In this document: positions 50,487 to 59,500 of the stretch, piece by piece
Layout: each line of letters begins with the position of its first letter
Position numbering within the stretch: position 1 is the first letter of the stretch
Assembly (NCBI GenBank): GCA_051867135.1
Contig: JBJDYH010000223.1
Coordinates: 11,597-75,596 of the forward strand
DNA from: Faecousia sp.
GTDB taxonomy: Bacteria > Bacillota > Clostridia > Oscillospirales > Oscillospiraceae
Direction: 5' to 3'
Length of the DNA: 64,000 bases
Made by a program: the position numbers and the translations under genes
Notes under the pieces: generated by a model
What the model was told of the DNA's origin: nothing
The model's database searches: none
What the model saw: only the letters and a program-made list of their open reading frames with translations

Positions 50487-52046
50487 TTAACACAAGCCGG
50501 GGGTTTCGTGTTGATTACGATTTCCATTGATCCAATCCACCACAGGCTGCGCTTTGGACATTACATCCTCCCATGTGAGCTCTTTTCCGGTAGCTACATA
50601 CTCATAGAAATCATTAAGAATCCCGGAGAGTTCCTTGACATCACCTTTGGCATCGGCATTTTTTATCAGCTCCCTGGCAGCAGCTTCTACGCTGCTCTTG
50701 GTAAACTTAGTGCCTCCGGTAACTTGACTTTGCAGCTTCAAAAGCTGCTTGAGGTACTGGTTGTCCTCCTGAAGTTTGGCATTGCTCTTTTCCAGAGCCT
50801 TGTTGGCTTTCTCAAGAAGCTTTTCCTGCTCAGACATCTGCTTGCTGACAAACTCCCGGCTAAAGCGAATGTCATGGTTCGTAGTTGGGTTGGTATTGTC
50901 CACATTTTTCGCTTTTGTATGGCTATTTACCAATGCTACCCACGCAGTTTTTACAATATCATAATTGCGGAACATGGTTCGTAAGCCATTTTCGTATGCG
51001 CCAGAATGAATTTGGCCAGCAATACGAGCAAGAATCTCCTCTGCGTACAGCACAGATGCGTCACTATTACTGTGTTTAGAAACCTGATATGCAGATGCCA
51101 CGGATAATGCAGTTAAAATATATCGTTCAGAATAGTCAATTAGTTGGTCACGAAGAATGGAAACAAATTCCTCTCGCCCAGCTGCTTCACCCCAAATATG
51201 GAACGCCTCATGGCCCGCAACCTCCATAGCATTACCCGCAAATCTTGCCTGAATACCAACGATACATTCATTCCCGTCAATTAATGATATGGAATTATCC
51301 TTAATGCGATAGGTGTAACCATCGTCGTTATATTCCATTTTTTGAAAGGCAAAGGAATCTATCCCTAGTTTCTGGAGTTCTCTTTGGGTTCCTTCAGCAT
51401 AGGCAGTGATATTATACGAGTTTGCTTCTTCGTAAGCATACGCAATCTGCCCGATTTTTCCGCTTGTTTGTGCGCTTCCATGCACTCTCGTAAGAAAACT
51501 TTGTCTATCTTCAGATTTTCCTTTTTGTCCATTTCGAAAAACCTCCTGCTTTTTCTCCTTACTTGCTTTTATATTCATTTCAGGCGGTGCTCTGCCTTGA
51601 TTCTGCGCCTTTTCCTCCTGGGCAATGCGCCGGATTTCCTGCATAAACCCTTCCATATCCGCCCGGTCTTCCGGCGCAAAGGCGTTCATGTCTGCCTGGC
51701 TGTCGCATACGATTTCCGTAAACACTTCCATCGCCAGCGCATCGGTGCCGGTTTCAGCGTCATATCCCATGTCGAACGCTTCGGAATACATGGTGATAAT
51801 ATTCTTTACCGCTTCCTCTGTGCCGCAAAGCTCAACCAGCCGGTCATATACCTTGCGAACATCCACCTTATCGTTCAGGTTTTCGCTTTCATGGCCAAAT
51901 TCCCGGTGCGCCATCTCGTGACGCAGTAACTGCTGCGCCGTGAACTCAGGGTGGTCCGCACGGATAAAAACTTTATCGCCGCAAATTGCCGCCCTCACTT
52001 CACCAACGCCTTTAATTCTCAGGTTTCCGCCGGTAAAGCATACCAC
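50487..52046 (-). pseudogene. Fragment of phage polyvalent protein with two HExxH metallopeptidase-like modules
   Basis: HEMAH (51906-51920), HEAFH (51198-51212), NVDNTNPTTNHDIRFSRE linker; no clear start; runs into host terminator. Confidence 0.7.
51365..51532 (-). CDS. Nested 55-aa ORF (+1 frame), MDKKENLKIDKVFLRECMEAHKQAEKSGRLRMLTKKQTRIISLPMLKEPKENSRN
   Basis: AGGAGG SD 9 nt upstream of ATG; hand-translated, absent from the ORF track. Confidence 0.55.
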   Translation of the reverse strand: MDKKENLKIDKVFLRECMEAHKQAEKSGRLRMLTKKQTRIISLPMLKEPKENSRN

Positions 52047-52328: not shown

Positions 52329-52499
52329 TTTGCATATATTGCTATCGTCAGACGAAAACCTATCCTAATAGGCACTTTGGCTGGGGCGACTTCCCCACAA
52401 AGTCAGTACATAGTTTCTGGCGCTGGTTTGAAATGAACCTTGATTTACCCGCCCATAATAGCTATAATGGTAAACAGAAAAGGATAAGGAGGAATCTGT

Positions 52500-52805
52500 A
52501 TGTCCGCTTTCTACGACCGGCTCAAAACAAAGATGCCAACCGACAATGAGACCAAAACAAGCTTAATTGGTTGGGCTTTTGAGATTATCTTTCTTCTGTT
52601 TGCCCACTTATTTATTCTTTTTTCGTTTGGAGCATTTGTCCCTATTATGCTGGCCCTTGCTTGTCTGAAAACAACTTGGTTAACGATCCTTTTGGCGGTT
52701 GTATGTGTAGGTATTTGCATTGTTTTATCCGCCGCCATCGTCATGGATATTTGTAAAATCATCTATTTGGTAAAAGAGATACGCCATATGGATAAGGGCA
52801 GATAG
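52500..52805 (+). CDS. Small two-TM membrane protein with its own promoter
   Basis: TTGATT-17-TATAAT promoter, AAGGAGG SD, hydrophobic hairpin. Confidence 0.7.
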   Translation: MSAFYDRLKTKMPTDNETKTSLIGWAFEIIFLLFAHLFILFSFGAFVPIMLALACLKTTWLTILLAVVCVGICIVLSAAIVMDICKIIYLVKEIRHMDKGR

Positions 52806-53265: not shown

Positions 53266-53280
53266 AAGCCACCCGAAGGG

Positions 53281-53464
53281 GTGGCGCGGAGAAGGAGGGA
53301 TTTGTTTAATCAAGGTAGCAACCAGTTTTTGAACTGGTTGCAGCAATATGCCACCGGCATATTGCGATTTATAATTTTCAAATCCCTCCTTCTCCGCCCA
53401 AAAAAAGAAGCCACCCATTTGGGTGGCTTCCTTTTTTTGGCGGAGAAGGAGGGATTTGAACCCC
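53281..53464. repeat. Three tRNA-Ser 3'-end copies including probable prophage att site (53438-53463, minus)
   Basis: TTCAAATCCCTCCTTCTCCGCC at 53377-53398 (+) and 53439-53460 (-); degenerate copy 53281-53304; arm-like repeats tcat(a/c)tcaaaa at 53511-53533. Confidence 0.75.
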
Positions 53465-53567
53465 ACATAAAAACGGCAAAAACGCTTTAGAAATCAGCAC
53501 TTTTAGAAATTCATATCAAAACTCATCTCAAAAGTGTATTCCATAGGAATTGTCCATCAAACGCAAG

Positions 53568-56500: not shown

Positions 56501-59500
56501 CGTGGGCTTCGGAGACAACATTTCCTTTGGCAACTTTTCGGCTCAGATTCATATCTGCGACACGGTTGCGCATCTCCGTTTTGAATCGAGTACGCGCGGC
56601 TTCGGCTATCTGCACCGGCTCAAAGTAGGCGCTTAAAACCTGCTTGGCAATCACCTTATCGGGAACAATGTCATAGACATTCCTCGTCATGGTCTCGCGG
56701 CTGTACTGAATGCCCATGGCCTTATCTTTCCATTCGTTGGCAGTTTCCAGATAACTATCCGCTTTTTCAAACAGAGCTGCATGCACCTGCCGTTTATACT
56801 CAGTAATGGACTTCCGGGCCTCCTCATACTCCTTCTTGGCCTCGTAAACCTCCCGAATGCCTTCCACATTATCCTTGCTGGGGTCTAGCTGTTCCAGAGA
56901 CATTTCACCCCGCAGCAGCTTGCCAACAATTTCCTCGTCGGCCGCCGTAAGCAAATTTCTTCTCACGGCCCGTTCGGAATTCCGCCGGGCATTCTTCATT
57001 TTGTTTCCGGCTTCCAGAGCTTCCTCCACGGTGCGTACCTTGGGCATCTGAGCCTTTTTCTCGGCCTGTGCCGCTTTATCCTCGCCGAACCGGCGAACCT
57101 TCCACAGGTCATTCCTGAGCTCATCGATAACGCTGTCAAAGCTCTCCCGTGCTGCCTGCTTCATCGTTCCGGCTGCCACGCCATAGTATTCATCCAGGCT
57201 CTGCTTCTGTTTCACAATGGAGTTAGCAACTTCATACATCTTCACCAGTTGATCTGCCGGGTGGGTAATCTCCTCCGGGAACAGCTCCGGCGCCATGCCC
57301 CGCAGCTCATCGTAAAAAGTATCAACCGGAATACCGCCCTCATTGACGATCCTCAGCGTCCACCGGCTTCGCTTTTTGAAATCCAGAAAGTCCACAATAT
57401 CTCCCTGATCACGGGCATCCAGAGTGACCGCTGTAGTACGCAGCTTATCCTTGATATCCTTGTACTGGTCATAGAATTCCCGGTCTTCAATTTCTCCCTT
57501 GCGCCAAGCGTCTTCAAAAAGCTGGTCTGCTATCTCCTGAGATATCTTTCCGGTTTCCAAATACGCATCAGAAAGCTGTTGCACCGTACCCCTCAGAAAA
57601 TCTCTTGCCTCCGCGTAGGGAACGCCAAATGTGTTACGAAGCGCCTGAAAAGCCTTCCACTCCTTGCTTGTCAAAGTATCTCTTGCTTTCGCGGGAAGAT
57701 TTTCCCGAGCAATAGGCGTTACCTCCTCAGCTTCCAACGGCTCTGCCTTTGGCTCAGCCCTACCGCGCATTTCTTCTACCTCTCCGGCAATCTGCGCCTC
57801 GTCCGCATCTTGGTAGCTATCGTCAAACGAAAATGTTTCCTTTGCTAAATATGTATCATAAACCGATTTATCTCCGTATTCAAAGATATCCATGAAAGGA
57901 ACGCCCTCAGTCTTGACATTTGAGCCTTCATAAGATATACTACCTATGTAACCACCCTGAGTGCAGGTGATAGGCGCAGAGAGGCCTATCGCCGAAAGCA
58001 GACGGGTGGTTCTTTTTTTGTCCGCGTATAGTACATCGCTCGACTCAAGGAAAAACCTTCCGTTTTCATCGGCATTACGATTCCGGGTCTCAGTCTTTGT
58101 ATAAACACTATTAACTTTCTGCATATCGTTAATATAAAAACCTTTTTCCACAGGGTGCATATCAAAGACGACAAGAACAGGACGCCTATTTTCGGCTAAA
58201 ACAGAACCATACAGAATCAATCGAGAGTTTATACCCTTGCTGGTCAAAATTAATATGGGATCTTCAAGGATTTTTGGAATATCTGCCAAAATATCAATAG
58301 AAACTTCTGGATGATCGTGGAGTATTTTCTTTGCCTTTTCCGGGGTTAGGTATATATCACTTTCGATACCTCCAAGTGCTTGGATCACACTTCCTGTGCT
58401 TCCAAGAATGAATGTAGGGACATCAGTGCTTTGCCCAAATCTATTCCAACTGCGAATATCTTCAGCAAAAGCAATAGCCTCCCCTGAGTAAACGCCCGGC
58501 CTTTCAGTAGAAAACCTCTCCACCGGCGGCCCGGTGGGCTGCTCCGTACCGTTCTCCTGCATCTGCAATCGTCCGACACCGTTTTCGTCCATCCATCCTC
58601 TCACGCCCTCTGTGAACCTGTCAGCCCCAGCGCCAAAGGCATTGATGCCTGCGTATGCGTCCGCGAGAACTTCCTCCACACACCGTCTGAAGGTTTCCTC
58701 GTACTCATCGGCAGAGGCATTCTCTTGACAGCCATAAATCGCCCAAAGGTTATCCTTGTAGGTATCCAGTACCCGGCTAAACTCCTCCATGGAATGCTGC
58801 TCCATAATACTTTCCGCAAGGAAATCGACCATAGAGCGAAGCTCGTTTGATTTCCAGTGGAAAATCTCATGGTCACCGAGCTGCTCCACAGAAACTTTGT
58901 TGTCCGCCTGAAGAATAATCTTATCGGATTGGAAAACACCCCGAGCATAGCCAACGCGGCCGTCAGACCTGGCAACCTCGATGCCGCCTATTACATAAGT
59001 AACCGTGCATCCCGTTTCCTCATAAATCTGCTTGGCAGTAAGCTGCAATTCGGCGTCCCAATGGCTCTCAGGGATTACTAAGAGATTCTGCGCATCTGTG
59101 CCGTTCTGTAGACCCAGTTCCTTGCTGCTGACATTCTGGATTATGCCTTGTCGCCGTAAATCATTCGCAGCATTCTGTCTTTGAACGCTTGCCACTGTGC
59201 CTGAGTAGGCTGCGGGCCGTTTCCCTGCTGCGCGGCTTCCCAGGCTTCCAGCTTGCTCTGCGGTACCCGGGTCAGCATACCGTCCCTGCCCTCCATCAGA
59301 TACACCGTTTCCTGTGACGGTTCCGGGCTGGGTAACTGTAGGGGTCTGGGTTCGTTCGTTGCTGTTTGCATTTACTGTACCTCCGTTCTTATTTGTAAAG
59401 TTAAACTTATTGCCAATCCTACTTACCGCTTCGCCAGTAACTTCTTTGACGGTCTTGGACTGAACCTCTTTGGTCGCCCGAGCATAAGCCCGGCCCTCTG

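Follow-up and report, generated by a model that had tools for sequence, protein, structure and literature searches.

An antisense hairpin-RNA gene overprinted on the tail of a predicted phage RNase domain: conservation from gut phages to E. coli phages and a possible role as RNA antidote

The antisense cassette and its host gene

The window (the whole stretch of DNA that was analysed, 64,000 nucleotides) contains a giant reading frame in which PF18819 (MuF_C) is the sole Pfam match (43.3 bits versus a cut-off of 27.6, E 4e-11) and in which Pfam found no Phage_Mu_F domain. Because the contig has, on the same strand and further upstream, terminase, portal, tail fibre, holin and internal virion protein genes, we regard the locus as a prophage virion module. 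A first-pass annotation made from the letters of the window had placed a near-consensus promoter, a nested hairpin and a run of seven T residues on the opposite strand, directly after a MuF-C/nuclease-like domain. All three were found where it put them (Table 1); the promoter occupies 57913-57941 with a spacer of 17 nt and the nested hairpin 57950-58011. Adjacency to the domain also stood, but the location after the domain did not hold strictly, because the Pfam match ends within the T tract; the 3' end of the RNA therefore abuts the domain. The start of the RNA was placed by analogy with the E. coli Sakai homolog, whose mapped start is the seventh base past the -10 hexamer.

Table 1 Features of the window locus and positions of satellite arrays of the same RNA family
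Feature	Position	Strand	Remarks
-35 hexamer TTGACA	57913..57918	+	Antisense sigma70-type promoter; overprinted on Asn1380-Val1381-Lys1382
-10 hexamer TATACT	57936..57941	+	Overprinted on Ser1373-Ile1374 (AGT ATA)
Predicted small RNA, ~72 nt	57948..58019	+	+1 = G57948, from the mapped Sakai homolog start
Inner stem of 10 bp, apical loop of 8 nt (57976-57983)	57966..57993	+	RNA fold
U7 tract of predicted intrinsic terminator	58013..58019	+	Opposite strand: Lys1347-Lys1348 and first base of Arg1349
MuF-C/PBECR predicted RNase domain	58008..58490	-	Pfam PF18819 at residues 1242-1350
Polyvalent protein gene, 2829 residues	53568..62057	-	End of prophage virion module
Satellite-like island arrays	L290:8040-8430; L291:8040-8375; L293:9040-9320		Further arrays in L292, L421 and L340

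The predicted RNA folds with -34.9 kcal/mol (z -4.91), none of 200 shuffles being equally stable; the hairpin was absent from the output of a simple terminator scan of the window. The promoter by itself is unremarkable. A loose scan of the window gave 8 sites versus 7.0 expected, and promoters of 11/12 or better occur 4.2 times per 64 kb in the genome, two of them inside the window. Since promoters of such quality are this frequent, the case rests on homologs, and conservation of the predicted elements in those homologs is what removes chance as an explanation.

MuF-C domains are classed among the PBECR RNases, which have a histidine, expected in the N-terminal helix, plus serine or threonine, expected in the C-terminal strand (Iyer et al. 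2017, PMC5512222). That work suggests that PBECR-type polyvalent proteins are packaged and injected, proposes that their PBECR domains cut mRNA or CRISPR RNA and so aid infection rather than kill, and describes Mu gp30 as catalytically inactive. The nuclease-like character given to the domain in the first-pass annotation agrees with retention of the PBECR histidine in 77 and of the serine in 76 of 78 MuF-C homologs; His1249 and Ser1317 would form the catalytic pair of the window protein. In an AlphaFold model of the domain (pLDDT 77) the histidine lies at a helix end and the serine in a strand. The best fold matches to this model, in a comparison that covers roughly residues 1-150, were BrnT (Z 5.1, rmsd 2.7, 75 residues aligned), CdiA-CT, RelE and colicin D, all with low Z scores, and Foldseek gave no match at E 0.001. 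An Atlas feature search with the domain returned MuF_C and PBECR2 clusters. We infer that the MuF-C domain is probably a toxic RNase.

Three other features lie near the locus. A 519-residue part of a second polyvalent-type gene (window 50487-52046, minus strand) belongs to the same PHROG, 22978, seems to be truncated, and has no detected cassette. At window 52440-52805 (plus strand, opposite the phage genes) a 10/12 promoter precedes a 101-residue hydrophobic reading frame that has no family match and is a candidate lysogen-expressed accessory gene. Window 53280-53470 is a long and almost perfect inverted repeat. It contains, in triplicate, a stretch that we take to resemble a tRNA end; ARAGORN found no tRNA there. 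The repeat, which was the source of spurious miRNA matches, probably consists of attachment-site remnants.

Selection on the promoter, terminator and fold

Homologs were present in 16 of 300 genomes of the family, and further ones were found in viral, genome and metagenome contigs; a single-protein search of viral contigs gave no match. In all, 253 loci gave 263 domain hits, of which 190 were unique, 158 intact and 78 mutually less than 75% identical. These 78 domains are the basis of the following counts.

Codons of the domain core vary freely (Ile52 is ATT in 34, ATA in 21 and ATC in 21 homologs). The codons under the -10 hexamer are locked to ATA for isoleucine (73/74) and AGT for serine (56/60), and those under the -35 hexamer to GTC for valine (74/74) and AAT for asparagine (26/26). 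The same holds for the terminator, with AAA at two lysines (62/63 and 57/61), AGA for arginine (61/65) and ACC for threonine (61/62), and for further tail positions: proline CCG (32/32), phenylalanine TTC (37/37) and glutamine CAA (40/41). Codon locking is confined to the predicted promoter, RNA and terminator. The first-pass annotation had proposed looking for AGTATA and TGTCAA at the DNA level in homologs; the codons that spell them are locked rather than freely lost. At least 10 of 12 promoter positions match in 71 of the 78 homologs, the spacer is 17 nt in every one, and the mean promoter score is 10.5 as against 7.7 in synonymous shuffles.

Selection also extends to the fold. All 78 RNAs have a fold z below zero relative to the mean of their own synonymous shuffles (median z -2.5), and the antisense strand outfolds the sense strand in 62 of them. 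A structure of 22 pairs was named by hand from the window fold and the alignment; in the covariation alignment of 75 of the 78 RNAs (the three with long inserts were left out) it is 76% paired versus 29-52% in slid controls, over which the manner of choice favours it, and 0 of 500 shuffles reach its score. The covarying stems that the annotation had also proposed looking for are present, with two-sided changes at 20 of the 22 named pairs (75 RNAs, kinship ignored). RNAalifold gave the outer 9 pairs alone, since the position of the inner stem shifts from one subfamily to another. These data show that the predicted RNA gene is under selection at the level of both DNA and structure.

The loops often end in UGGAA, UGUAA or UGCAA (44/78), endings from which the apical loop of the window copy differs. 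Mimicry of a tRNA anticodon was unsupported, since the triplet occupies the 3' edge of its loop of 7-8 nt and is absent from the window copy, and a small-peptide reading was rejected as a start-stop frame of eight or more codons occurs in only 5 of 78. In six loci (L005, L118, L154, L156, L170 and L249) a new RNA segment has been inserted in the tail and a decayed older 3' arm left behind. Rfam gave no match over 57913-58020 (E up to 1) or at seven homolog loci (E up to 0.5).

Cassettes behind other domains, outside phage genes and in E. coli

A scan with a strict promoter-hairpin-U rule of 129 dereplicated MuF-C reading frames (411 kb) found 144 antisense cassettes and no sense cassette, with 1-3 in each of three synonymous shuffles. 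MuF-C tails accounted for 108 of the antisense cassettes and other places for 36. Segments upstream of 26 of these 36 were scanned and comprised 14 with a match to LPD3 (6 above the cut-off), two to PBECR3, one to ART-PolyVal, two to divergent MuF_C and seven without a match. The SI...VN/VK tail is also found behind domains unrelated to MuF-C, and this, together with the locked codons and covarying stems, bears out the earlier suggestion that the tail is a by-product of an RNA gene. By inspection, similar domains have similar RNAs and different domain families have different RNAs, with up to nine different cassettes within one reading frame (L142). A single RNA could silence a single mRNA, and one distinct RNA per domain therefore argues for domain-specific action. 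Single reading frames with 3-9 antisense cassettes (L142, L055:760-3321, L156 and L073) include some repeated tails that have no domain.

A model of LPD3 (L168:3365-3790, alignment A4; pLDDT 83) matched CdiA tRNases and other BECR toxins best, the top match having a low Z of 5.9 (rmsd 3.4, 93 residues aligned), and Foldseek gave no match to it at E 0.001; the model suggests that LPD3 may be another RNase family. Mu gp30 and the Sp18 homolog, an inactive-domain control of two proteins, stop at the domain and have neither tail nor RNA. The RNA model also found no match at the MuF_C locus L420.

The RNA is also found where the domain is not. Several reading frames have extra tails stacked in frame. 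Where the frame is broken or short (19 cassettes), a promoter of at least 9/12 is retained in 15; this score is reached by 3.5% of 600 random windows of slightly different size. The genome of the window has an orphan of its own (G000:C336:442-530, L255) with an 11/12 promoter and a decayed frame, which belongs to a different subfamily. In a closed chromosome (G261) three orphan cassettes (L423:8194-10640) adjoin a C5 methylase and a TdeIII-type endonuclease, that is, a type II restriction-modification system. Restriction-modification genes lie beside only two examined arrays and most single orphans stand among housekeeping genes; these neighbourhoods gave no support for a general association between orphans and defence islands.

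In E. coli a stand-alone block was covered to at least 80% at one place in 79 of 5426 genomes. The four loci opened are satellite-like islands with an antirepressor or regulator, primase, SSB, ProQ and PerC, and an integrase was seen in three of them. Their arrays consist of 3-5 variant hairpins behind a single promoter with no reading frame, and the hairpins match phage tails (183 records). Relative to the nearest sampled phage copy 42-60 of 65-71 columns match, and compensatory changes keep the pairing. Hairpins 1 and 2 are about 80-92% identical to phage copies and some others about 60-70% with compensated stems; closer phage relatives may be unsampled. The last hairpin matched no phage reading frame in viral contigs, its sole match being another array, and between copies 1 and 2 lie two more that may go with other domains. 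The PICMI paper (PMC10803314) mentions large non-coding regions, and the parts of it covered here describe no such RNAs. Taken together, these loci show that predicted cassettes are kept in satellites, in hosts and in in-frame stacks where the domain is missing. Neither the stand-alone arrays of satellites and hosts nor the design of one RNA per domain had been anticipated in the first-pass annotation.

An RNA model built from Firmicutes copies detects E. coli phage PhiR5_2 at 51.8 bits, and 436 of 5426 E. coli genomes and 186 phage records, 933W L0134 among them, contain related stretches. Conservation of the predicted hairpin-RNA gene thus reaches from gut phages to those of E. coli. In Sakai the copy is part of ECs1242 (prophage Sp5). 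Published dRNA-seq of Sakai gives an antisense start at 1301472 (minus strand) with an enrichment of 24 (Sy et al., PMC7547250 Dataset S1), and the sequence upstream of this start is the predicted promoter. The expression in lysogens that the first-pass annotation had envisaged is therefore seen for this homolog. The coordinates of EcOnc36, listed solely as an Hfq peak, in five datasets (Tree et al. 2014, PMC4104026), identify it as the member of the family in E. coli. Antisense reads exceeded sense reads in ECs1242 in all five samples of that study, the table of which gives no Northern result for EcOnc36, and a review (PMC7873438) gives its target as unknown. EcOnc37 was rejected as a second member, as it lies at ECs_4993 and not at the MuF gene. 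ECs1242 (L414) has a second antisense start at version 1 position 1300538 (minus strand), with an enrichment of 9.4.

Possible function of the RNA

Type III antitoxins are pseudoknot repeat arrays co-transcribed with the toxin from the same strand. In the accounts covered here, the type III systems (ToxIN, CptIN and TenpIN, and AbiF with its RNA) resemble the cassettes in combining a predicted RNase with a structured non-coding RNA and in having multi-copy RNA arrays, which in the cassette family occur in satellites. The cassette RNA differs in lying antisense inside the reading frame of the predicted toxin with its own promoter and a single long hairpin, and it accompanies a predicted BECR-type domain that is part of a virion protein. 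The window toxin candidate is not ToxN, CptN, TenpN or AbiF, since Pfam gives MuF_C only, and the RNA is outside the known type III families and outside Rfam. Type I antisense RNAs overlap a small toxin gene at its translation start or at one of its ends. The cassette RNA shares with these and other cis-antisense RNAs a position opposite and complementary to its target, but lies about 4.1 kb into an 8.5-kb reading frame.

Among phage proteins, the window protein resembles the PBECR/MuF-C polyvalent proteins of PMC5512222 in PF18819 membership, in the retained histidine and serine and in virion-module context. The text of that paper contains neither 'antisense' nor 'noncoding', and the portions covered here name no antidote or immunity partner for the toxin-like domains of polyvalent proteins; the word 'antisense' is likewise absent from the covered part of a 2026 BECR preprint. 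The MuF polymorphic toxins (Jamet et al. 2017, PMC5576092) also have toxin domains on head proteins and proposed phage delivery, but their immunity is described as conferred by proteins, whereas the cassettes would confer it by means of an overprinted RNA. In Salmonella, STnc6030 of prophage BTP1 (Owen et al. 2020, PMC7067206) is likewise expressed in the lysogen and antisense to a DNA-injection gene, but is a single RNA of 786 nt for which the sections covered describe no per-domain hairpin design. We found no description of a system such as the cassettes in the literature, subscription papers and bioRxiv supplements being outside the scope of the search.

The reading that we prefer, and consider slightly more probable than all others together, is that the RNA is a type III-like antitoxin that binds and blocks the co-injected predicted RNase domain. 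The first-pass annotation had left type III-like binding and antisense control side by side; indirect evidence favours binding. The giant prophage protein would be packaged and injected together with the phage DNA, and its domains would be toxic RNases. The host-type promoter would fire on DNA entry and in the lysogen, and each folded RNA would bind its own cognate domain. The result would be a dead-man switch, in which a cell tolerates injection only if the DNA that comes with the toxin escapes destruction and is transcribed. Cells that degrade this DNA, or that are given a genome-less particle, would receive toxin without antidote, lysogens would be immune, and satellites riding helper particles, as well as hosts, would profit from a stolen RNA. 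Overprinting would hold toxin and antidote together during domain shuffling. An RNA antitoxin fits because there is one distinct, structure-selected RNA per RNase-like domain and none at the inactive domain, and because the elements that collect the variants would be carried in helper particles from which the helper genome is missing. The wider picture is plausible, though we give it somewhat less than an even chance: temperate phages from those of gut Clostridia to those of E. coli would inject a cocktail of RNase toxins, each with an overprinted RNA antidote, such that DNA-destroying cells are killed and satellite-hijacked particles are poisoned, and satellites and hosts would counter with arrays of stolen antidotes.

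If true, this would account for the tolerance that phages and lysogens show towards polyvalent virion proteins with toxin-like domains. It would reveal a class of RNA genes that annotation overlooks, since they lie in frame inside reading frames, explain the recurring SI...VN linker motif and the non-coding block of the E. coli satellite-like islands, and give EcOnc36 a candidate function. Satellite and host arrays would be an RNA-based counterpart of orphan immunity arrays, and the study of RNA-protein inhibition would gain many independent pairs of small RNA and nuclease.

Two observations speak against an antitoxin: perfect complementarity to its own mRNA is built into the RNA, and EcOnc36 crosslinks to Hfq, which is typical of base-pairing RNAs. 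Both would be expected of antisense silencing, in which the RNA pairs with the late mRNA and leads to its decay, thereby curbing leaky toxin in the lysogen or superinfecting relatives; satellite and host copies would then interfere with phage late genes. The great excess of antisense over sense reads in ECs1242 (PMC4104026), the 80-92% identity of satellite hairpins 1-2 to phage copies and the precedent of STnc6030, a prophage antisense RNA that excludes superinfecting phage when overexpressed, by a proposed pairing mechanism (PMC7067206), point the same way. However, the RNA is nearly all self-paired with its structure under selection, one reading frame may hold as many as nine different cassettes, and the satellite copies of only 60-70% identity have compensated stems. 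Moreover, loop letters are common to distant phages whose stems differ, which would make for poor pairing specificity. We consider silencing unlikely, though the most serious of the alternatives.

If the RNA does bind the domain, the RNase could instead be a non-lethal helper that cuts defence RNAs or mRNA during infection and is switched off afterwards, with the RNA copies of lysogens, satellites or hosts giving exclusion or defence; this differs from the antitoxin only in toxicity. Such targets are proposed in section 19 of PMC5512222, and orphans are kept in host chromosomes, two beside restriction-modification systems. The escape mutants of STnc6030, single amino-acid changes in the injection protein (PMC7067206), could reflect protein binding. 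Such mutants are odd for a 786-nt duplex, and STnc6030 may also bind protein. A helper is improbable, as the phage would encode, behind a strong host-type promoter, an RNA that inhibits one of its own required functions, and the nearest folds are growth-arresting toxins.

The Hfq peak of EcOnc36 and its target, given as unknown (PMC4104026, PMC7873438), would also suit a trans-acting Hfq-type small RNA that regulates host mRNAs and is merely housed in a big gene. This is very improbable given a position fixed behind each domain, with no conserved single-stranded seed, and a 15-nt loop motif that alone retrieves an upstream MuF-C domain in 55 of 87 unique viral contexts. Least probable of all is an attC-like DNA palindrome for domain shuffling with incidental transcription: cassette-like repeats of domain plus imperfect palindrome and in-frame tail duplications would suit it, but selection on the promoter and the U-tract acts on one strand alone, the Sakai homolog has a mapped start site, and the ends differ among families.
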